In this document: positions 28,344 through 41,732 of the stretch, one piece after another
Layout: every line of letters starts with the position of its first letter
How positions within the stretch are numbered: the first letter of the stretch is position 1
Origin: Cystobasidiomycetes sp. EMM_F5
Lineage: Eukaryota
Direction: 5' to 3'
Assembly: GCA_051047955.1 (NCBI GenBank)
Contig: JBPGPT010000013.1
Span: forward strand, 434,001 to 498,000
Length of the DNA stretch: 64,000 nucleotides
Made by a program: the position numbers and the translations under genes
The notes under the pieces: generated by a model
The model's database searches: none
The model's input: only the letters and a program-made list of their open reading frames with translations
Told to the model about the DNA's origin: nothing

Positions 28344-29813
28344 ATGCCATTCACAAAGGTAGTAAAGAACGATGGTGGGCACAGCTGCATTTGAGTGAAA
28401 GAAACGGGCACAATGGACTGACTGGCGTGGAATGGGTGGACAGCGTACTTTTCACGTAGGGTTATATTATGCTATGGATATCAGTAACGGCATTCTGATT
28501 GTACGCTGGTATATTCGCAGGCTACCAGGTCAAGTACCGACGTCGCAGGTGGGTTTGAGATTGGGCATGAATGGCAGTATCCGACCAGGCGACGTGAAAG
28601 AGGAATATATACTGCACTCGATATATACGACACACATCAACACCCGATGAAGCACAATTACAACTGGCATAGTTCAGATTAGCTCGCGGTCAAAGACGAC
28701 CAACAGCAGTGATTACGCAAAATGGACATATAATAGTCTTTCGCTCCTATCTGATGAACATCGACAATCGCATAGACGCCGCCTGGTTGGCATGATGTGG
28801 AGGTAGCAGGAGCAGCATGCTGACTGTCGTGCTGTTTTTACTCGCAACAGAGAAGGAAAGACCGACTACTACGCTCGCGTGAGTAGCAAGATTCAGGATA
28901 GAAACCTCAACATGCCATACTGATGCAGTCTCTGCATACAGCGCAAGCTCGTGACGCAAAACAAGACTCGCTTCACATCCCCCAAATACCGCCTCGTCGT
29001 CCGATTCACCGGCAAGGACATCATTGCACAAATCGTATATGCCAAGATCCAAGGAGACGTCGTCCTGACTTCCGCCTACGCACATGAGCTACCCAACTAC
29101 GGCCTGAAGCACGGTCTGACCAACTGGTCTGCTGCCTACGCTCTCGGTCTACTGGTCGCCCGACGTGCTCTGACCCAGCTCGGCCTGGCCGACAAGTACG
29201 AAGGTGTCGTCGAACCAACCGGAGAGATTAGCCAGACTGAGCGAGCAGAGGAGGATGGTCCACGACCCTTCAAGGTCTTTTTGGATGTCGGTCTCAGGAG
29301 AACTTCAACCGGCTCCCGTCTATTTGGTGTACTCAAGGGCGCGTCCGATGGCGGTCTCTACATTCCTCACAACGAAAAGCGCTTCCCTGGTTACGACCCA
29401 GAATCAAAGGAGCTTGACTCGGAGGTTAGTCGATACACTATTCCAGTCAATTATATCACGACCTAATTCATCCTTATTTGTTACTACAGACCCTAAAATC
29501 CTACATTGTCGGAGGACACGTGCAGGGCTACATGGAGTCGCTCGAGGAGGAGGATGACGAGCGATTCAAGAAGCAATTCGCGAGCTACCTCGCCGACGAC
29601 ATTGGTTCGGAGGATCTCGAGGAAATCTACACAAACTGCCACGCCGCGATCCGTGAAGATCCCATGCGCAAGAAGAAGGAGCACTCTGCAGAAGAGATTG
29701 CAGAGTTCAAAAAGGCTGCACGAGCTTCCCACCCAAAGAAGTTGACGTACGAGCAGAGGAAACAGAGAGTGCAGGAGAAGAAGGAGGCGTACGCCCGTGG
29801 CGACCTCGAGTAG
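28344..29813 (+). CDS. RPL5: 60S ribosomal protein L5 (uL18)
   Basis: [66 protein letters not shown]; includes a 12-nt microexon at 28444-28455. Confidence 0.97.
28640..28759 (+). ncRNA. Intronic box C/D snoRNA, snR60/SNORD80-like double guide for 25S rRNA
   Basis: In the 302-nt intron 3 of RPL5: C-like box (c)cgatga ~28645, D' CAGA preceded by GGCATAGTT, C' gtgatta, and D box CTGA 28751-28754 preceded by TAGTCTTTCGCTCCTAT. Both guides are complementary to conserved LSU rRNA segments. Confidence 0.85.
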
Positions 29814-30498
29814 ACTTTCCTACACGCCCCTCGTGTCTTTCCTCCACCCCTTTCCGGTGTCCTGTCGTAGTCTGCCTCGGTGTTGCGCTGAATGCCTTGT
29901 GGGAAGACTGTCGATTGTCATTGCTGACGACGTGCCCTTATTGTCGAACATCTGACGATGCCGTGAATCCAGCTGACTTCGCTGACCACCGGCAGGTGTT
30001 GATTGCTGACTACGCCCCTTTCAACACGGACTGACCATAACCCGTCAGCACATATGACTACTCTTGGGTAAGCGTGAGACATGCTGCTGGCACATGCGCG
30101 ACTCTTCGATATACAATGGCTAATCTACCCGGGGATGTGCCACTGTGTCTCTATGTTTCGCTCAATGCTTTTGGCGAAGGAAAATTTTAGCCCAGCGACA
30201 CTGCCGTCTACATGCACGGGCACCAGTATCAAGGCGAGGCAGTCTGATCAGTTGACGCTTCCCGCTATGTTCGTGCCCTCCTCGCTCCTTTGTCCCTGCA
30301 CACAGCTATCGCAAACGGAGCTGTAAAGGGGAAAAGCAAGGCAACCACCGGAGCTATGCTAGACTTGCATCGCACTGACATCCCATTCTGTGTTTACGGT
30401 TTACTTTGCCTGATTTATCTCGACTCAGAAATACTGTTTCCTCCCAGAGGCCCACTCGTCCTGATCGGGATCGCTATTCCACACATTAGCATTCAGCT

Positions 30499-31598
30499 AT
30501 GCCAAAAAAAACCAAGGGTACTACAGAGACATTCAAGCGTCCTTCAGCCCCCGCTAGTCGCAGCGGACCTTCATCAGGTGGAAATGCCAGCAATGCCCAG
30601 CGCCTAACCGGCCCCGGCGGAATACAACGTCCGTCGCAGACGCGGTAAGCATAGTCCGCGGAGCAATTTTGGGTAGCAGGACACGACTCACGTACTCTAC
30701 CGACACAGGCGCCCATCGATAACGAACCCATTCGTGACACAATCCCGCTTAACTCGTGACAGAGTTAATGCCGAAATAACAGCCGTGACGAACGCACCTC
30801 TATCGTGTCGTATGCCTGGCTGGTACGTGTTGAACATGTGACTGGTGTCGTGAGCATTGACTAACGCCTCGCTCTGTGCCGAGCAGTACTCAAATGCACC
30901 ATCGCGGGGAAGCGGGCATTAAACATACTTTTGCTCTACCTCCTGCTCCCATGCAGCATACGATCGGACCAGATGTACCTGTCACATGCCCTTTATGGTC
31001 AGTATGCGTCAATCTGCTGCGGCATGCATGCTAAACGTCTGGCTCGATGGGCAGTCAATCGTCTTTTCCGCATCTGCTTGCGTTTATGAATCATCTTAAT
31101 ACTACCCAGTTATGCAAAACACACATGGCAACTTGGTACAAGGGGACTTTCAAGCTGTGTTCGGAACAGTCATGGTTGGTCAAGCCTCACAAATATCGAC
31201 AAGCTGAGCAATCGTGGTCGGCCAAGCTTCGCAATTATCGACAAACTGGGAGTTTGCTGACTTTTTTGTGACTTTTCATCGTAGCGGCATGATATATCGC
31301 AGGGAAGTGGCAGCAACGCATATGGCGCTCATGCACAAGAAGTTGTACCTGCCACCGGGCCATGACCAAGAGGACTTCGCTATTGCCTGCATTAAATGGT
31401 TGGGCTAGGTATCACTGTGGCGAGGTTGTCGTTGCTGACTTATGATTCAGCAAAGCTTTCTTTCGAGGGTCTTCTGGATTCTTGCAACACCTCAACAATG
31501 ACGGTCTTGTAGAAGACGCATGCTCTCGCTTCTGCTTGATTCACTTAGATGGCTCACTACGCTGGGACAGCCGTACATCAAGAATAGTTCTCAAGTAG
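30499..31598 (+). CDS. Unrecognised multi-zinc-finger protein, copy 1 (6 exons, ~250 aa)
   Basis: Exons 30499-30644, 30709-30822, 30887-30997, 31055-31174, 31285-31398, 31451-31598, all GT-AG, total 753 nt in frame. Fingers: CRMPGC-x12-H, CPLC-x12-HLNTTQLC, CSEQSC-x11-HMALMH, CIKC-x12-HLNN..C. Confidence 0.85.
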
Positions 31599-32085
31599 CG
31601 GAGGTGTACCTCATCACTGCTTTTATAACTCGCTTTTCAGCGCGCCTGACTTGTCTTCCAACCAATCTCAACGGTTCAGATCGTAAAGGGGAAAGGCAAT
31701 TGCGGTCACTTGAGATTCATCGTTTTTGGACGTGCTTGCCGTCCTCTTACAACAAACCTGCATCCCGGTGCTGGCTGAATATCACGCATGTTCGCACATA
31801 TGCAGGTCATTGCTCCCTGCCGTCACATACTGATACGTACCCTGTCCACGCTTGCACCGCTACCTCGACGATTGAGTGACTCCGCATGAACACAGCCTGG
31901 CGGCCAAATGTCCGTACCGCAATGACATTCACCGGAAATCCGCCTGCACAGTCTACAAGATGAGCAATCAAATCGAGACTCCGTGTTGCGAGTCTCTCTT
32001 TCGCACTTTAATACTTTCCGCGCGGTGTTTCTCGAATACGCTGCCTACAGGAGCGTTCATATCTGCGAGGTAGACAAGGCAAGAC

Positions 32086-33173
32086 ATGTCCTACTCTGAT
32101 CGCCGTCGTTCGTCAACGCAAACGCCAACGCCATCCTCAACGCCAATGAGCACTGGCCGTCCATCAAACGGTCAAGGTCGGGGCAGCCCATTTCGCCGCG
32201 CAAACAATCGTGGATCCTCTCGAACACCGTAAGCTGTTCGAGATGACGTAGTGTGCCAGCTATTACTGACATCTATCATGATGCTGGAAGTCTGCGCAAT
32301 AGGCCAGCGTCGGCAGCCCATGCCGATTCTCAGATCAATGCACCGTACAGCAGCGCTCGGCCACCACTTCCAATTCTGCTACCGTGCCGTATGTTTGGCT
32401 GGTACGCTAGTCCCTTGCTTGAACACATAAAGTACTCAGCTCTTCGCATCTGCAGTACGAAACTCCACAGAGCGGAGGATATTCATCCCGTACACGACTT
32501 TTCACTACCAAGTACCGCACAGCAAAACGTTCAGATCCATTGCCCTTGCTGGTTTGTTCTACAACTATACACGTTGCTAGCAAGCTGACGTGTACCTTTT
32601 CCCGCCCCCTTTATTCGTCTGCGGACGTACGCGACTCAGCCAACAAGTTGCGCCAAATTTAATCGTATTCATGAAGCATCTGAATGACGGCACGAATGGG
32701 TTATGTGGGAATTACATGGTTCTGAACTACAGTGTTACCTTTCAGTTATGCTCCGAGCCAAATTGGTAGGTGCATTCTGCGTTAGCTTGTCCCACTTTCG
32801 CAAACAGCTGAACGCGAATGCTTTCTACGTTCGTACCTCGTTCCAGTGGTATGGTACTCCGCAAGGAAGTGGTGACCTCGCACATGTCACTCTTGCACAA
32901 AAAATTGTACCTTCCGCGTGGCCACCATCTTGCGAGCTTCCGTATGCACTGTATCTCCTGGTGAATAATATGATCAATCTTGACAGAACGCGGCTAAAAC
33001 TGTCTTGCCTTATCCGTAGCAATAATACATTGGGAGGCTCGCCAGCATATCTTCGTCATTTGAACGACGGCGGCTACGCTGAAGGCGGATGTGGGCGCTT
33101 CTGCCTTCAACACTTATCTAATTCGTTATATTGGGATAATTCAGCCTCACGACAGAAGATCAAGTTCAATTAG
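32086..33173 (+). CDS. Unrecognised multi-zinc-finger protein, copy 2 (6 exons, ~247 aa)
   Basis: Exons 32086-32228, 32291-32401, 32456-32551, 32640-32765, 32847-32960, 33020-33173 (744 nt). Collinear with copy 1: CRMFGC, CPCC..FMKHLN, CSEPNC..HMSLLHKKLYLP, CISC..HLN..CGRFCL. Confidence 0.85.
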
Positions 33174-33182
33174 GCTTGCTTG

Positions 33183-33216
33183 GCTGGTAGCAACGTAATT
33201 CTATGTTGCTACCAGC
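33183..33216. repeat. Inverted repeat/hairpin immediately 3' of zinc-finger copy 2
   Basis: GCTGGTAGCAACGTA-attc-TATGTTGCTACCAGC: a 12-bp perfect stem, extending to 15 bp with one G-U pair. Confidence 0.8.
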
Positions 33217-33443
33217 ATGACCTGGTCGTTCACGTCGGGAATTACTGTCTGTCACGACCAGCAATTTTCCTTAAGCTTGATGCAGCGCTTTATCTTGTAT
33301 ATCGCCTAATCTAACGAAACTGACAGTGGCCAGCGATCAATCTGTGTCACCACTGACAATTGTTCTCATACGGAACGCGCAAAGCCATGGATTGACGATC
33401 GCGCAAGCCATGCTGCAATGACGCCGTCTCGACTGGCCATCAT

Positions 33444-34897
33444 ATGAATATTGCGCTAGATCATGCGCTCGTGAACCTCGCCCAAATCAAAGAGGGTCCG
33501 GGGAGTGACCGACCGAATGCGTGGGCATGTGCACCGCATGCTGTGCTGCGTCAAATGTCACCTCAGTCCGGGAAAACATCATTTCTTGCATTCAAGCCCT
33601 CCTTGCCGCCTATCCCTGTACTTTCACGATATCTGAATCTGGCGAAAATTTCGTTCTCGGGCCAACCCAAGGTACGTGTGACTCGGTTGTCTGGTGCCAG
33701 CCTCCCTACTAGCAACAGTACCAGTGCTGTGGTGACAAGGTCCAGTCTGTACTGACTTTGATATATTTCTACCAAAACGCAAGTCTCGCAGAAGACGGAT
33801 CCGCAGTCTCCAACGAGACGCAAATTCCCAGATCATGGTGACAATGTCGGCTATGACATATGTCAAGCCAAAGAACGCAAAAGCTGCACACAATCGGCGC
33901 ATGATCAACACACTAGGTTTAAATCCAGGTATACAGACACGGTTCTTGAGCCCTATCGTACAAAACGCTGTTCGCTGTCAGAACAAACAATGGTACGACT
34001 ATGCCATTGATCGATCCACGGCACTTTATAACATGCTTCTAGCAATTTTGGCCAGAACGATGTGAACCTTGGAGGTCTGGCTAAGCACCTGAACGCGTCT
34101 CCTGCATGTAGGACGACCACTTTATCTCGCTACCACAGTCTCCGATGCAATAAGTTCGGCTGGTGCGGGCTTGTGCCTCACAGGCAATTACGATTCACTC
34201 ATCGCTTCTGTTCTTACAGTGATAGGGTCTGTATGGGCGGACCCTCGCAAACGGCTCACAGCTTCGCCCTGCCGTAGAATGACCAGCAGCAAGAGCCCGT
34301 ATCCTGTCCGCGTTGGTAAGTCTCCGCATTCTTACCTTTTTTCTTAGTACCCGGCGATGGTCTAAGGCCTGTTGCATGGCCACACAGCAGTATAAAGTAT
34401 CCAACGCTGCTTGATTTCCTGGATCACTTGAACAAAGTGATGATATGTGGCACGCATATGGCTTGCACCTATTCCAAGACTTTCAGGATGTGTACAGAGG
34501 CTGGATGGTGGGTGCATCTCGGTCCTGTGCTGGTCTGATGGCTGAGGCACGCTACTGTGGGATGGCAACACCAGCAAGTTTAGAATCTTCCGCAAGCAAT
34601 CGGCACAGATCCATATGGCAGCCTTGCATTTCAAGCTGTACATTCCAAAGCGCTGGAAATCCTCGAAAGATCAGACATGTTGTGTTGGATGGTAAGACAT
34701 GGCTTGCGCTGACTGCGGGGCCGGGTATATGGCTGATGCTTTCGTTGCATCGAAGCAATTTGCTTTACGACGGAATAATTGGACTCCTTGCGCATCTGAA
34801 TAAGAGCGCTCCTTGCTGTGCGGTTGCGCTGGTACAGCTCAAGGGCTCCCTCCAATACAATCGAGTGCAGCAACGGGTAGAATTGAAGCCGCTGTAG
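33444..34897 (+). pseudogene. Zinc-finger copy 3 (7 exons, extra finger) with one in-frame TAG at 34275-34277; pseudogene or recoded/alternatively spliced gene
   Basis: Exons 33444-33671 (start uncertain), 33784-33992, 34043-34162, 34220-34315, 34388-34507, 34575-34691, 34756-34897. Motifs CQNKQC..HLNASPAC, CNKFGC..HSFALP*, CPRC..FLDHLN, CTEAGC..HMAALHFKLYIP, CVGC..HLNKSAPC. Confidence 0.7.
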
Positions 34898-35115
34898 TCG
34901 GCTTTTCGCGAAGTCGAAGCTCAGCAACACCGTCGGTAGGTGTCCTTCTTTGAATGTATCGCTTTGCAAGCATGTCCTAGCAGTTTTGTCGCACTTCTCT
35001 TCGCATCGTCATGATTTCTAGAGGATTGTCGCCACTGAAACCCGAGTTTCTTTTGCGAAATCGCCGAATGGCCGTTGCTTTTCGACCATTTCAATACTGG
35101 AAAGATTGGAAAACC

Positions 35116-36790
35116 ATGGCACTCACTGCAAGATTAGCCAGAGTGACGAGCTCGTCAATGGCCAGGACGGCCTTCTCTCCCTCGCCAGCCTGCTGCAACT
35201 GCTGGCAGTCCGGACTCAAACCAACTCTTCGCAGCTATGCTACTGCCTCGCGGCCTGTCTCGATGGCTACCGTCGTCGACAGCGTCCAGCAGACCAAAGT
35301 CCCGCAAGCAAAGCCCTTCCGCCCAGATCCTTTGGTGTTGTCGCCCGTCAAAGCGGGAGCCGTTGAGGAGGCAGTGGACGCTCTTCGAGAGGATATTGGG
35401 AGGCCCATCTACCTCGACATGCAGGCGACGACGCCCGTCGACCCGCGAGTCCTCGATGCAATGCTCCCGTACATGACGAATCAGTTTGGTAATCCCCATT
35501 CGCGGACTCATGCGTACGGATGGGAGACTGAGAAGGCCGTCGAGGAAGCCAGACAGGTGCGTTTACTCTGATTGTCTACTTCTCCGACGCCGTGCTGATG
35601 GTTTGAGATATTTCAGCACATCGCCGACCTCATCGGGGCAAATCAAAAGGACATCGTCTTTACTTCTGGAGCTACAGAGTCCAACAACATGGCAATCAAG
35701 GGTATCGCTCGCTTCTACGGCCGTAGCGGAAGAAAGCACATCATTACCCTGCAGACCGAACACAAGTGTGTCCTCGACAGCTGCCGATATTTGCAAGACG
35801 AGGGTTTCGAGGTGACATACCTGCCAGTCCAGAAGGACGGCAAGGTTGATCTTAAAGAGCTCGAAGCTGCAATCCGTCCCGATACTTGCCTAGTCAGCGT
35901 CATGATGGTCAATAACGAGATTGGCACCATTCAGCCCATCAAGGAGATTGGAGAAATCGTCAAGAAGCACAAGGGCATCTTCTTCCACACAGATGCTGCA
36001 CAAGCAGTCGGAAAGATTCCCATGAACGTAGACGAAATGAAGATTGACGTTATGAGCATCTCTGGGCACAAGCTGTACGGACCGAAAGGTGTCGGCGCTG
36101 CGTATGTACGCAGAAGGCCGCGAGTCCGTCTCGAACCGCTCATCAACGGAGGAGGCCAAGAGAGGGGTCTCCGGAGTGGCACTATTCCTGCTCCACTCTG
36201 CGTTGGTTTGGGCGAGGCAGCTCGCATCGCTAAAGAGGAGATGGCTACCGACACCGAACATATCAAGTATCTATCAGACAAGTTGCTCAAGGGTGTGACC
36301 GATAAATGCGAGGCCATCGTCCGCAATGGCGCCGATGACGGCTATCCAGGGTGGTAAGTGGCTCGACTGCCGGCACAGCTGCCTAATCGCTGATATGCCT
36401 TCTGTGTCTCGTAGTCTCAACCTGTCATTCTCCTTCGTCGAGGGCGAGTCGTTCCTTATGGCCATGAAGGACATTGCCCTTTCCTCCGGATCGGCCTGCA
36501 CTTCCGCTTCTCTCGAGCCATCCTACGTGCTACGTGCGCTCGGTGCAGAGGAGGATATGGCGCACTCTTCCATCCGCTTCGGCATTGGCCGGTTCACTAC
36601 CGAGGGAGAAGTAGACTTTGTCACGAGCAAGATTGTAGACATTGTGGAGAGATTACGAGATTTGAGTCCGCTCTGGGAGATGCACCAGGAGGGCATCGAT
36701 CTGAAGAGTATCAATTGGTGTGTTACTTCTTCGCCGTATGATTATCCCTATCAGCTAATACGTGTGTGCCTGTCCAGGTCTCAACATTGA
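35116..36790 (+). CDS. NFS1: Mitochondrial cysteine desulfurase
   Basis: [70 protein letters not shown]-terminal WSQH*. Confidence 0.97.
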
Positions 36791-37842: not shown

Positions 37843-40800
37843 TTACGCATCAGGTTCGATAGGATGTCTCGCTTGACTAGGGGATGTACCCGACGAGCTC
37901 GGACGGTTGAGAGAGGTGGTCGAACGATTACTGTGGTAGGGTGACTGTGGAGCAAAGGAAGAAGGCGGTCGGCTCACAAGCGGGGCAGCCCCAGCTGGCA
38001 GCATGTCTGGCGAGTACGAGACGGAGGGAGGGCGGTGTGGGTCGGCCAACGGATGGACGTTGTAAGATGAAGGCTCTGAATTGCCCGAGTCTTGTCTAAG
38101 CTGGCTATCAGTCTTTGGAAGCGGTGCTTGCGCTGGTAATGGTGGAGGAGCTGGCACAAGAGGAGGCGCTTGATGAGCATTGAAGGGCAATCTGTCGGGC
38201 GGCACGCCGGTGGCCGGTGTAGGCGTCTGTTCGACCCATTCGAACGACGCTGCCTCTCTCAAAGGCGAGCCCGCGCAGCTTGCGGACGGATTCATCACCG
38301 CAAGCGGTAGAGGCGAGAGAGGCGCAGATGCTAAATACGCAGCATGCTGTTGCGGCTGGAAAATGCTGGCGCCCTGGCCGGGAAGTACCAGCTGACCCGG
38401 GCCAGGCGACTTTGATCTGCCCAACGATGACTTGACAGCGTTGGCCAAAGAAAGGCTGCCGGAACGAGCTCGTTGCGAAAAGCTTCGTCTAGGAGAACCA
38501 GATCCTGAGGGTGATAGTGAGCCAATGTGAGACTCTCCTGAAGACATGCTCGTGATATGATGCAGCAGGGCTGGGTCGACTCCTCCAACTTCGCCAGTTG
38601 TGTGCGTGAGCGCAGATCCTTCGCGCGATAGCGGTTGCGATGCATACGATGAATCGGACGGCGTGTAGTAATGCGGAGGTGTGCCAGCAAAAGCAGGCAG
38701 CAGATGACGAGGCGACAGCAGGTTTGGGTTGGGTAGATGAACTTGCTGCGCAGTATTGCCATGATCCCCGCTGTACGCTGAAGACGGTGCACCGAGAGAA
38801 CCGAGCTGAGTCTGTCGACTCGACTGAACGGCAGCATTGCTCTGGGGCGAGGCTGTCAGGCGGGCAGTATCGACAGAATTCCGCCAAGCTGGATCTCCAT
38901 CGTCGCCAGCAACCTCGGCGGAGCTAGATGACATACGCGGGTTTCGATATGGGTTATTCGGCTCATCCAGCACGGGCAGACCCTCGAAAATCTCCTTTCT
39001 ATGCGAAATGAGAAATTCTAGGCACTTATCCTTCGATGCACTTGATCCTGCAGCTATGGCAGCGGCGATGGTTGCAGCGCTATCTTCGGGAAAGAAAACT
39101 GGATTCAAACAGAGGGCCAGAGCTTGAGCTGACATTTTGTTCTGCTCAGAATGGGCAAGGACTCGGTCGAGGTGGGCCATCAGCATCTTGGCCGTTGCTT
39201 GATGTGACGCCGATAATCGACGGAGTCGCTTGATGAGCATCCGCAGAGCCTCTTCTTCTGATGCCATAGTGATGGCTTCTCTCGCTGACGCATCGAGGGG
39301 AAGCAATGGCTCCGGCAGTTGCCTTAGATAAAGCTGAGGAAGTAGAGACGAGATGTCAGGGCACACTGCATACTACGTTAGACGAACTCCCAAATTTACT
39401 CACCTTCAAGACACCGGCAACAGTATGAATGTCATGCCTGTCTGGATCGAACTCGAACATAATCTCATCCTGTTCTATTTCTTGTATGACCTGCTGGATG
39501 AGGCCGAGTTTACCTGGTATGCGATAGATGCCCTCAACTTCCAATCCACGAGAGTCTATCTCTAGGATCGCTCGCTGAACAGTAAGCCTACGCGAATTGG
39601 TGTTGAAGATTCGGTCAAATGTGACATGATTAGCTTTGTCGTACTGTCGAATTTGACAAAATTGGCCTACGGTACGAGTGTGCCATCATTTGCGGCAGTA
39701 TACTCGCTCAGTGAAACGCCAAAGATGAGAGAGTAGGAGACTCCAACATGATAATTAAGGTACGGTAGGGATTCTGAAAGTCCGCATAAGCCAAATACCG
39801 TAGCTGCGGTCAAGTCCGTATTACCACCCACCACCATTATATACAGTCACGCCCGCTGCATCAAGGTACTTCTTGCAATCCTCTGCCGAGTCGACTGCGA
39901 TTGCCGCCTGTCGCGCCTTGTCGGAGCATACTATCGAATGCCTTGCTCTGGAGATGACAGAATCCGAGTATTGGACAAAAGCGCCTGATATCGACACATA
40001 TCTCAGCATGTGGATTGATTGCCTTTGCGGATAATCGCCACTCACTCCTACACACATCTCCGAGCTCGTACGCGCACTCCGTCAGACTTCCAAAGCCCGC
40101 CTTGGACACTCGCTCTCTCTGCAGCCTCAGCGTTTCCAAGTGGTGTATGGCAGCTCTGTAAGCTGCATCAGCTTCTTCAGCCTCCCTCTTGGCTTTCGAT
40201 AGACGCTGCTGCGATATTGCAGCAGCTGTAGAAGACATGTGCGCAGATTGACGGTGCTGTCGATCCTTGTCCTTCTCGCGCACGTCTCTGTCCCGTGACG
40301 GATTCTCGGATCTCGTGGTGCTGGGCGGGGCCAAAGCATAATCAACTGCATTTACCGACTGAGACTGGCTGTCGTTTGGTCCTTGTTGAGGGAATGAAGG
40401 ACCGGTCCACGAGGAAGTCGATCCTCCACTCGCATCTCGCTGCTGCCCACCCACGACAGACGACGATCTCGATCTATCGCCGATGAAACCAGGCGAATTT
40501 TGCGGGTGTTGTCCACTCGTACTGATAGGCGAAGTGTACGTGTTAGTGTTTGTATTTCTCGCTTTGCCCAGCTTTGCTATCAAACTGTTTAGTTGCTGTC
40601 GGGAGGATTTGATGGCGGCAGATAGATTCGGTGGTCCACTGTCCTTGTCTTTGTCAACTCGTCCAACTGACGGCAATGGCGAGTCTTTATAGACTGATAT
40701 TGATGCAGCTCCAGCAGTCGCTATTGCCGACATCCCATCGGACTGCGACGGGGGGACAGGCATACCGGTATAAGTATAGCCTGAGCTGCCATACGATTCT

Positions 40801-41732
40801 GGCATTCCTAGAGTATGAAGTTCCGGCCCACTTGGCTGCTGAAGTGGATACTGTAGGTGATTTGTATAAGCGAGGTGCGAGGGAGAGGCGTTGTTATGCA
40901 AGTTGGCTGGAATGGGCGACGTTGCGGCTGATCTGCTGATGCCGTGATGATTTTGTGACGAACCAGAATGTGACGATGTCGACGCTTTTGTATTGCCTCC
41001 AGTGAGATGGGGAGGGGAGCCTACGGAGAAAGCCTGAGCGTGTTCTTTGCCTAGTTGAGCTGCGTCATCCGATTTTCGAGCATACACCCTCTGCAGCTTG
41101 AGGGTATGCGTCTTGTACTCTTTGTGCTCTGCGACTACATTTCTCGCTTCCTCTGCAATCCTCCTCCTCTGCCTGTCCTTCTGATCGCGAAAGGCGGTGA
41201 GGGGATCAATGACGCTCCGTTTCAGTGCGTCGACGAGTATCCTCCTGTCGCTCAGCTCGGCGTAGGTGATTGCGCGCATCTGTAGCCATGCAATCTGTAT
41301 TCCAGAGTCCCACCTCGCAAAGAGCGATGCGGACGACGCGGGTTGTCGTTTGTCAATCTCGTCCTGTTTGGCTATGAGCTGAGGGGGGGGGGGGGGGTGA
41401 GCGGTGTCAGAGTGTTTTGTGGAATGCGTGGACACGTTGTTGCGATATCGTAACGTCTCCAAGGGAATACCCACCTTTTCGAGCCCTGGGAATGGGAGTG
41501 TCAGTACGGAATCCCTCCAGCACCATGACTAGACCTCCTCACCGTCCACATACTGCTGTTCGAGGTCAGCTCTGCGGAATGAACCCAGTCCAGCCCATCA
41601 ACAAGTCCGCCCCGTCAGTCGATATCCTTCCCCCCAAATGGCCGAGACTGCCCACCTCCGCTTGAAGAAGACTATAGCCCTGTCGCAGAATGCTGTGAGC
41701 TGCTTGAATGCGTCGTCTGCGTCGAGCTGCAT
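37843..41732 (-). CDS. F-BAR (FCH) + RhoGAP protein (Rgd1/Rga7-like)
   Basis: N-terminal FFKRRADLEQQYVDGLEKL helical F-BAR; RhoGAP motifs GLEVEGIYRIPG, DIHTVAGVLK, YLRQLPEPL, HLDRV..NKMSAQALA; Ser/Pro-rich tail. Confidence 0.85.

Follow-up and report, generated by a model that had tools for sequence, protein, structure and literature searches.

In the 64-kb window, by which we mean the whole stretch of DNA that was analysed, the forward-strand segment from 30499 to 34897 holds an array of three spliced paralogues (c1, c2 and c3) between RPL5/uL18 and an NFS1-like gene. We consider it probable that the three are protein-coding genes of a basidiomycete-like fungus, duplicated in tandem long ago, that encode zinc-finger proteins of ~250-300 aa with a basic tail, and that the zinc-binding, nuclear and binding roles proposed below apply to them; spacing and composition are the basis for what we say about zinc binding, fold, localisation and ligand. 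As a lineage-restricted gene cluster the array is real but fairly ordinary, and its family could not be placed. Newly described here are the phase-2 introns in Cys codons (13/13), the gain of an exon in c3, an in-frame TAG in the same copy, and the saturation of synonymous sites between the copies.

Gene models between RPL5 and an NFS1-like gene

Upstream of the array, RPL5/uL18 spans 28924..29813 on the + strand (Pfam PF17144, 7e-62; PF14204, 1e-17), and its joint 29422->29488, which has GT..AG ends, is an intron confirmed by a spliced contig from a close relative (run X1). Downstream lies the NFS1-like cysteine desulfurase, a class-V aminotransferase (35116..36790, +; Pfam PF00266, 4e-62), the likely ATG of which, read from the ORF at 34981-35571, falls only ~220 nt past the c3 stop. 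Run X1 (share 0.06, kind guessed) contributed three contigs, two on the close relative's RPL5, one of them spliced, and one of 56 nt on NFS1; none falls on 29956-36027, and the run bears no information on expression of the array.

The first-pass annotation had proposed that the ORF-poor gap between RPL5 and NFS1 resolves into three same-strand spliced paralogues, and this is what emerged once models had been built and searched against the window by tblastn, with the flanking genes identified by Pfam: c1 matched c2 at 5.7e-24 and c3 at 3.7e-13, and c2 matched c3 at 5e-7. All five of the collinear motif sets quoted in that annotation are present in the spliced models. The paralogy of the three predicted copies is far beyond chance. 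Outside the array, the best tblastn match of the models within the 64-kb window reached only E = 0.035, and there are no recent duplicates.

The predicted model of c1 (30499..31598, +) has six exons (30499-30644, 30709-30822, 30887-30997, 31055-31174, 31285-31398 and 31451-31598, +), with 250 codons, four fingers and a TAG stop. That of c2 (32086..33173, +) also has six exons (32086-32228, 32291-32401, 32456-32551, 32640-32765, 32847-32960 and 33020-33173, +), with phases identical to those of c1, and comprises 247 codons and four fingers, again with a TAG stop. c3 (33555..34897, +) was modelled with seven exons (33555-33671, 33784-33992, 34043-34162, 34220-34315, 34388-34507, 34575-34691 and 34756-34897, +), 306 codons and five fingers. 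The start codon and exon 1 of c3 are uncertain, with an in-frame ATG at 33444 and more ATGs within exon 2, and its intron 1 is phase 0, as opposed to phase 2 in c1 and c2.

All 16 introns of the predicted models are GT..AG, with lengths of 50-112 nt; 15 of the 16 have G at +5, and 15 of the 16 are phase 2. Weak donors occur among them (GTTGGG, GTGAAT and GTGCGG), and only 7/16 have a CTRAY branch motif 8-45 nt upstream of the acceptor. Read-through of in-frame introns was discarded as biologically meaningless.

Finger architecture and symmetric exons

By regular expression, each spliced protein contains one C-x4-C-x3-[HC]-x8-H-x-F-x-LP finger, two C-x2-C-x12-HLN-x4-8-C fingers and one C-x4-C-x11/12-H-x4-H finger. 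A two-finger module of ~75 aa, in which a C-x4-C finger ending in H..(L/F)x(L/I)P is followed by a C-x2-C-x12-HLN-x4-8-C finger, occurs twice per protein after the N-terminal tail. When the seven 'HLN' exons are aligned, H, L, N and C are invariant in 7/7; in the six aligned C-x4-C exons, H, P and C are invariant. The third ligand position of finger 1 is Cys in c3 and His in c1 and c2, which fits a metal ligand. Every one of the 13 fingers in the three proteins has the spacing C-x2/4-C-x3-hydrophobic-x7/8-H. The 7-residue TGE(K/R)P-like linkers that characterise Krueppel-type poly-zinc-finger proteins were found in 0/3 proteins, the linkers between fingers being 12-20 residues long and TGE[KR]P being absent from all three spliced sequences. 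These patterns, run on the spliced models, bear out the earlier description of alternating C-x4-C and C-x2-C...HLN...C fingers without Krueppel-type linkers.

The finger introns are phase 2 in 13/13 cases and split the second Cys codon (TG|Y), such that the junctions rebuild TGT or TGC in 13/13. Since every finger has its second Cys codon interrupted by a phase-2 intron, each internal exon would be a symmetric 'finger-to-finger' cassette, a type of exon that can be duplicated with frame and fingers left intact. Xenopus TFIIIA has one intron per zinc finger. The array is like TFIIIA in that its exon boundaries track the finger repeat, allowing finger gain through exon duplication, but differs in that the intron is inside the second Cys codon and always phase 2, with each exon running from the last part of one finger into the first part of its neighbour. 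In literature searches, no description of this second-Cys-codon, phase-2 arrangement in fungi came up.

One extra exon is found in c3 (exon 3; 34043..34162, +; 120 nt, phase 2-2). This exon can be aligned with the six remaining 'HLN' exons, and its length equals that of c1 exon 4 and c3 exon 5; through it c3 acquires a hybrid fifth finger, C-x4-C-x14-HLN-x4-C, while the following finger recovers its C-x4 start. The predicted fifth finger of c3 was gained via this one extra symmetric exon, and the count of five, obtained from the regular expression and the exon alignment, replaces the four fingers of the first reading.

An addition to that reading is an in-frame TAG at 34275..34277 (+) in c3 exon 4, directly after the HSFALP motif. 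Past the TAG, the frame stays open and carries conserved motifs to the end of exon 4 and across the three exons after it. An alternative donor, also in frame, immediately precedes the TAG. We do not take the TAG to be a recoded codon, because TAG is the normal stop of all three copies. Either this codon recently inactivated or truncated c3, or it is a variant that stems from the sequencing or from the strain.

The N-terminal tails are of low complexity and contain lysine/arginine clusters. Their pI is 12, 41-58% of their residues are S/T/P/G/N/Q, they have 12-18 K+R as against 1-3 D+E, and they lack Cys. They had been described as basic and unalignable, and are both: basic by composition, with no alignment among the copies. 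A 17-nt motif, GTAAAGGGGAAARGCAA, lies at 30323..30339 (+), ~160 nt upstream of the c1 ATG, and it recurs at 31683-31699, ~390 nt ahead of the c2 ATG. These are the only two matches with at most 3 mismatches in the 64-kb window, where 0.10 are expected, and two were reached in 1/100 shuffles; the motif was found post hoc, and we regard it as a candidate cis element shared by c1 and c2.

Named zinc-finger families and searches for relatives

The PROSITE PS00028-type C2H2 pattern, C-x(2,4)-C-x3-[LIVMFYWC]-x8-H-x(3,5)-H, fits only one of the 13 fingers exactly (the third finger of c3), and the relaxed pattern C-x(2,4)-C-x(11,13)-H-x(3,5)-H fits three, one per protein, the other 10 having no second His there. 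The array fingers share the spacing of classical C2H2 fingers (Pfam zf-C2H2, PF00096), and the third finger has H-x4-H. Unlike in classical C2H2 fingers, seven have Cys in place of the last His, 6-10 residues on and after an invariant H-L-N, three use C-x4-C-x3-[HC]-x8-H, and TGEKP linkers are missing. Given the classical C2H2 spacing, the predicted fingers are a variant of an already known kind. The label 'unrecognised family' in the first-pass annotation thus stands insofar as no named family was matched exon by exon, but is overstated for fingers that keep this spacing.

It is unlikely, in our estimation, that the three genes are divergent members of a named family such as Rei1/ZNF622/ZNF277 (zf-C2H2_2), TRAF or the UBZ/NEMO C2HC fingers, all of which the array motifs resemble to some degree. 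The Rei1/ZNF622/ZNF277-type module (zf-C2H2_2, PF12756) consists of H-M-x3-H plus hydrophobic-Y/F-(I/L)-P, a spacer, and a C-x2-C finger whose last ligand is unusual. In the array, too, H-M-x3-H-x1-2-L-Y-(L/I)-P precedes a C-x2-C finger, and the fingers are non-Krueppel and far apart, but the first of them starts with C-x4-C, the spacer is ~12 residues and the second finger ends in H-L-N-x4-8-C. Searched with queries of 31-38 aa, the exon with H-M-x3-H..LY(L/I)P gave no Pfam hit in 3/3 copies and no Rei1-type PDB match. UBZ/NEMO-type C2HC ubiquitin-binding fingers follow C-x2-C-x~12-H-x3-4-C and TRAF-type fingers (PF02176) an alternating C-x2-6-C-x11-12-H-x3-7-C, the reference His-to-Cys spacing for UBZ/NEMO and TRAF being 3-4 residues. 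The alternation of C-x4-C and C-x2-C is common to TRAF and the array, and six array fingers have C-x2-C-x12-H; in each of these six, His and Cys are 6-10 residues apart, which argues against UBZ/NEMO membership and sets the last-ligand spacing apart from that of TRAF. The PDB contains Rei1, TRAF and NEMO chains. Single-exon queries gave no TRAF hit in Pfam, and none of the profile searches against the PDB picked up a TRAF chain. More broadly, no Pfam family was matched at even E = 0.05 over 12 exon translations, and four PDB profile searches at E <= 10 returned unrelated proteins or nothing; membership of a named family is favoured by the low power of these searches, since the queries were single exons of 37-50 aa, each without the Cys pair of its finger. 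Tentatively, the genes could instead constitute a lineage-restricted new family with a ~75 aa two-finger unit, portable 'half-finger to half-finger' exons, and a new compact zinc-bound domain for an RNA or protein partner.

Exon-wise searches of Pfam, the PDB, 1.84 and 5.8 billion proteins, metagenome contigs and the ESM Atlas recovered no relative. Finding no relative is weak evidence, given that the queries were single exons and that sampling of the lineage is poor; for a control gene from the window, no relative exceeded 47% identity. The Pfam scan of the 12 exon translations at E <= 10, which saw no whole finger because every finger is split by an intron, gave no zinc-finger family and three sub-threshold chance matches (E 0.079-0.16), and 0 families came from a further 12 ORFs, taken from both strands of the array and its surroundings. 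When four exon alignments were used as profiles against the PDB (E <= 10), the output was unrelated enzymes and a ribosomal protein (E 0.22-1), or nothing, with the profile of the seven 'HLN' exons finding only an unrelated ribosomal protein at E = 0.5. Against the longer proteins of the protein collection, the last-exon profile matched 2/126 candidates, both naive ORFs of the same contig; the last exon of c2 falls within naive ORF P0001, present in the collection from the same contig. The exon-5 profile (open frames around the exon) matched 0 of 24 candidates from the collection at E <= 10, and 0 of its 21 pattern matches in metagenome contigs were confirmed. An exhaustive hmmsearch of 1.84 billion representatives with the exon-4 profile gave four matches at E <= 0.001, rejected as simple-repeat translations or an unrelated bacterial surface protein. 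In the ESM Atlas, one exon led to DUF4256 fragments, set aside with recognition below the stated threshold, and the other to no usable match. Lastly, tblastn over 80 RPL5 loci (26 with at least 3 kb downstream, by hand count) found no NFS1 (best E 0.61) and no zinc-finger match (best E 1.6); RPL5, the positive control, matched 80/80 loci, and the search is uninformative because the closest genomic loci are just 67-70% identical in RPL5.

Plant INDETERMINATE-domain (IDD) proteins are plant-specific, and their fingers are ordered as two C2H2 followed by two C2HC. Taking these proteins (PMC1586020) as a comparison system, we note that the array similarly has a short basic N-terminal part followed by a fixed four-finger block that mixes C2H2 and C2HC fingers as a family signature. 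Unlike in IDD proteins, the finger types of the array alternate, and the likeness is one of layout, with no sequence similarity implied.

Age, constraint and predicted roles

Between copies, pS is 0.78-0.84 as against a pN of 0.34-0.49, over 159-164 codons; pS is saturated, which precludes a proper dN/dS. The identity of the copies at the nucleotide level is close to that of shuffled sequence, and for c1 and c2 this is true of exons and introns alike, making the exon/intron contrast uninformative. Saturated pS with pN at about half that value points to an ancient, constrained array without recent expansion; the predicted genes are old and constrained, neither recent nor fast-diversifying. The finger helices are the most conserved stretches, and the copies have similar residues in the helices of the conserved fingers.

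These observations leave unsupported the earlier hint that the array is a genetic-conflict or defence locus, a fast-evolving expansion tracking a changing target such as a transposon or virus, which we consider very unlikely. Such a locus would account for tandem genes with no relatives detected elsewhere, for unalignable N-termini and for a nonsense codon in one copy, but the copies are ancient (pS saturated, DNA identity at shuffle level), pN is well below pS, there are just three copies in 64 kb with no recent duplicates, and conservation is highest in the finger helices, the opposite of target-tracking fingers; the missing relatives are explained at least partly by poor lineage sampling. 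We likewise consider it very unlikely that c1, c2 and c3 are decaying or non-functional remnants (pseudogenes) whose ORFs are relics. The in-frame TAG of c3, the failure to find homologues and the very short gap (~220 nt) from c3 to the NFS1 ATG are what pseudogenes might leave, but c1 and c2 have complete frames over six exons each, GT..AG is kept in 16/16 introns and the split Cys codons in 13/13, pN is about half of the saturated pS, and c3 is open past the TAG with conserved motifs. Intact frames, introns and Cys codons argue against pseudogenes because long neutral decay would destroy them.

For three anciently duplicated protein-coding genes, the reading we favour, we propose that each finger binds one zinc ion, which would give four or five per protein, and that nuclear entry and non-specific nucleic-acid affinity are conferred by the basic tail. 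The finger block may be a compact surface to which RNA, structured DNA or a protein partner binds. It would probably not read double-stranded DNA base by base as a Krueppel-type array would, because the hydrophobic C2HC helices are similar between copies and the linkers are long and non-TGEKP. Finger number would evolve by duplication of exon cassettes, as in c3.

Lineage-restricted zinc-finger genes are common, and the array has no bearing on any long-standing open question. ORF-poor gaps in such genomes can conceal intron-dense genes, for which prokaryote-style gene calling yields meaningless fragments; indeed, the protein collection has only such pieces of c2 and c3. If the models are right, the array is a clean natural example of zinc fingers evolving through exon-cassette duplication, and puts forward C-x2-C-x12-H-L-N...C as a candidate for a new finger subtype, in a fungal lineage of which hardly any relatives have been sequenced.

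Three tandem paralogues between RPL5 and NFS1

The DNA of the window looks fungal nuclear in character, with a GC content of ~0.50-0.55 throughout and short GT..AG introns. An ORF-poor interval (29814-35100) is bounded by two plus-strand genes, RPL5/uL18 upstream (Pfam PF17144, 7e-62; PF14204, 1e-17) and an NFS1-like class-V aminotransferase downstream (PF00266, 4e-62). We read the sequence directly, joined exons by their coordinates and translated the products, giving three plus-strand models: c1 (30499-31598; 6 exons, 250 codons), c2 (32086-33173; 6 exons, 247 codons) and c3 (33555-34897; 7 exons, 306 codons). The first-pass annotation had proposed an array of three spliced genes here, a proposal that the models confirm and refine, and all the motif sets it quoted were found, collinear in the three models. 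When the whole window was searched with the models by tblastn, similarity among the copies exceeded chance (c1/c2, 5.7e-24; c1/c3, 3.7e-13; c2/c3, 5e-7); the best match outside the array had an E-value of 0.035, so the 64 kb contain no further copy.

The 16 modelled introns measure 50-112 nt and without exception have GT..AG ends; all but one carry G at +5, and all but one are in phase 2. A few donor sites are weak, and only seven introns have a CTRAY branch motif 8-45 nt upstream of the acceptor. Exon phases are identical between c1 and c2, with closely similar sizes of 146/143, 114/111, 111/96, 120/126, 114/114 and 148/154 nt. Intron 4 of c1 is unusually long (110 nt vs 50-88 nt in other finger introns) because a 42-nt unit is tandemly duplicated (79% identical; 31164-31247, plus strand), from 11 nt before the end of exon 4 into the intron.

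In alignments of the finger block covering 159-164 codons, synonymous differences have reached saturation at 0.78-0.84, which precludes a proper dN/dS; the non-synonymous difference is 0.34-0.49 and amino-acid identity 34-48%. In exons and introns alike, c1 and c2 are hardly more similar in nucleotide sequence than shuffled sequences would be. Together, these values indicate that the duplications are old and that constraint has preserved the copies, leaving unsupported the earlier suggestion of a conflict or defence locus.

Several other features accompany the array. A 17-nt motif, GTAAAGGGGAAA(A/G)GCAA, lies upstream of c1 (30323-30339) and c2 (31683-31699) on the plus strand, with no copy upstream of c3; these are its only matches in the window with up to three mismatches allowed (0.10 expected; 1 of 100 shuffles reached two), and it may be a promoter element common to c1 and c2. 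Starting 10 nt past the c2 stop codon is a 15-nt inverted repeat with 93% complementarity and a 4-nt loop (33183-33216), which may belong to the transcript 3' end. Elsewhere in the window, an FTR1-family iron permease (PF03239; 21788-22330, minus strand) lies near a multicopper oxidase (PF00394/PF07731; 24299-24853, plus strand), on the opposite strand, the gene pairing typical of high-affinity iron uptake in fungi.

Finger architecture and proposed mode of action

The array consists of constrained protein-coding paralogues in tandem, each with a basic tail and four or five Cys/His motifs spaced as in zinc fingers. The N-terminal tail of each protein (79-103 residues) is Cys-free, with a pI of 12, lysine/arginine clusters, 12-18 K+R vs 1-3 D+E, and 41-58% S/T/P/G/N/Q. 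Finger 1 is C-x4-C-x3-[HC]-x8-H-x-F-x-LP; finger 2 is C-x2-C-x12-H-L-N-x4-6-C (the "HLN" type); finger 3 is C2H2-like, C-x4-C-x11/12-H-x4-H followed by K-L-Y-(L/I)-P; and finger 4 is a second HLN type, C-x2-C-x12-H-L-N-x4-8-C. The block accordingly consists of a two-finger module of ~75 residues present twice. Across the seven aligned HLN exons, H, L, N and the C after them are invariant; in the six aligned C-x4-C exons, one H, one P and the first C of the next finger are. The third ligand position of finger 1 is His in c1 and c2 and Cys in c3, a swap that would be expected of a metal ligand. The classical spacing C-x2/4-C-x3-hydrophobic-x7/8-H is conserved in every finger, which makes a beta-beta-alpha fold probable.

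Each finger would bind one zinc ion, the basic tail would provide nuclear import and non-specific nucleic-acid affinity, and the finger block may act as a compact platform that binds RNA, structured DNA or a partner protein. Base-by-base readout of double-stranded DNA seems less likely, since the HLN-finger helices are largely hydrophobic and alike between copies, and the linkers are long and non-Krueppel; a pattern search of the spliced models found a TGEKP-type linker in none of the three proteins. We give nucleic-acid binding as the main activity a fairly low probability, and a role as protein-binding adaptors one only slightly lower.

Relatives and known families

Our queries were single exons or exon alignments of 31-50 aa, and because every finger is split by an intron, no query held a whole finger. 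Pfam searches with 12 exons matched no zinc-finger family, returning three chance matches (E 0.079-0.16), and PDB profile searches with four exon alignments gave unrelated matches (E 0.22-1) or nothing. Against 5.8 billion clustered proteins, the last-exon profile matched two naive ORFs alone, both from this array's own 202,864-bp contig, and the exon-5 profile gave no match at E <= 10. With the exon-4 profile, hmmsearch run exhaustively over 1.84 billion representatives found only four proteins, repeat or unrelated; a search of metagenome contigs found no relatives, and an ESM Atlas search with exons gave no usable match. Among 80 metagenome RPL5 loci, 26 of which (by hand count) have at least 3 kb downstream, there was no NFS1 or zinc-finger match nearby, RPL5 identity at the closest genomic loci being only 67-70%.

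This absence of relatives is weak evidence. A control gene, an open frame of 555 aa in which Pfam identifies no domain (39861-41528, minus strand), has only three relatives besides itself: an ENA protein (42% identity over 75% of length), one from Cystobasidium minutum (Basidiomycota, Pucciniomycotina), the nearest named (47% over 25% of the query), and one from Trametes (29% over 20%). Sampling of the source lineage is thus poor, and an exon of 40 residues that evolves fast would escape detection. Since relatives of the control frame in the protein collection carry RhoGAP, it probably forms one gene with the RhoGAP-domain exon that follows (37843-39372, minus strand). The public protein collection contains the contig only as prokaryote-style ORFs, such as P0001 (32688-33173) and P0002 (34415-34897), in which intron read-through is fused to the final exon of c2 and of c3, respectively; protein-level searches therefore cannot see the real genes. 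A close relative is present as spliced RNA in public run X1, whose kind is presumed: a 593-nt contig aligns to RPL5 over 481 nt with 9 differences, leaving out 65 nt whose ends are GT..AG (29422-29488, plus strand), confirming one RPL5 intron.

The fingers appear to be variants of the classical C2H2 finger; the PROSITE pattern fits one c3 finger, and a relaxed pattern fits three. The initial description of an unrecognised family agrees with the lack of any exon-level family match, but goes further than exon-wise searches can establish. A C-x2-C finger preceded by the H-M-x3-H..L-Y-(L/I)-P motif resembles the paired fingers of Rei1/ZNF622, the C-x2-C-x12-H...C fingers resemble those of UBZ/NEMO, and the C-x4-C/C-x2-C alternation resembles that of TRAF fingers; no exon-level profile or PDB search supported any of these likenesses, and the His-to-Cys spacing here is 6-10 residues, unlike that of UBZ/NEMO and TRAF fingers. 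Plant IDD proteins are analogues in layout only (PMC1586020), and among the papers listed by literature searches none was described as reporting this finger/exon arrangement.

Exon cassettes and the third copy

All 13 finger introns interrupt the codon of the second Cys between its second and third bases (TG|T or TG|C), and each internal exon therefore spans from one finger's Cys pair to the next, in symmetric phase 2-2. In c3, an in-frame TAG, the normal stop codon of all three genes, occurs at 34275-34277, directly after the HSFALP motif. Past it, a conserved open frame continues over the rest of exon 4 and three further exons, with splice sites intact; the TAG would therefore be a recent change, a sequencing or strain variant, or the end of a two-finger c3 product. 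An alternative in-frame donor lies just before the TAG and, joined to the exon 5 acceptor, would skip the next finger's Cys pair. The start of c3 is uncertain: its modelled intron 1 is in phase 0, unlike those of c1 and c2, and alternative starts include an in-frame ATG at 33444 and others within exon 2.

c3 also has an extra exon (34043-34162, plus strand), which is symmetric and, at 120 nt, equal in size to c1 exon 4 and c3 exon 5. This exon makes a hybrid fifth finger, C-x4-C-x14-HLN-x4-C, and rebuilds the start of the next. The intron-cassette structure of the fingers is new in this analysis. We propose that c1-c3 are C2H2/C2HC-type zinc-finger proteins with a neat exon-cassette architecture; the extra c3 exon is direct evidence that exon duplication alters the number of fingers in this family.
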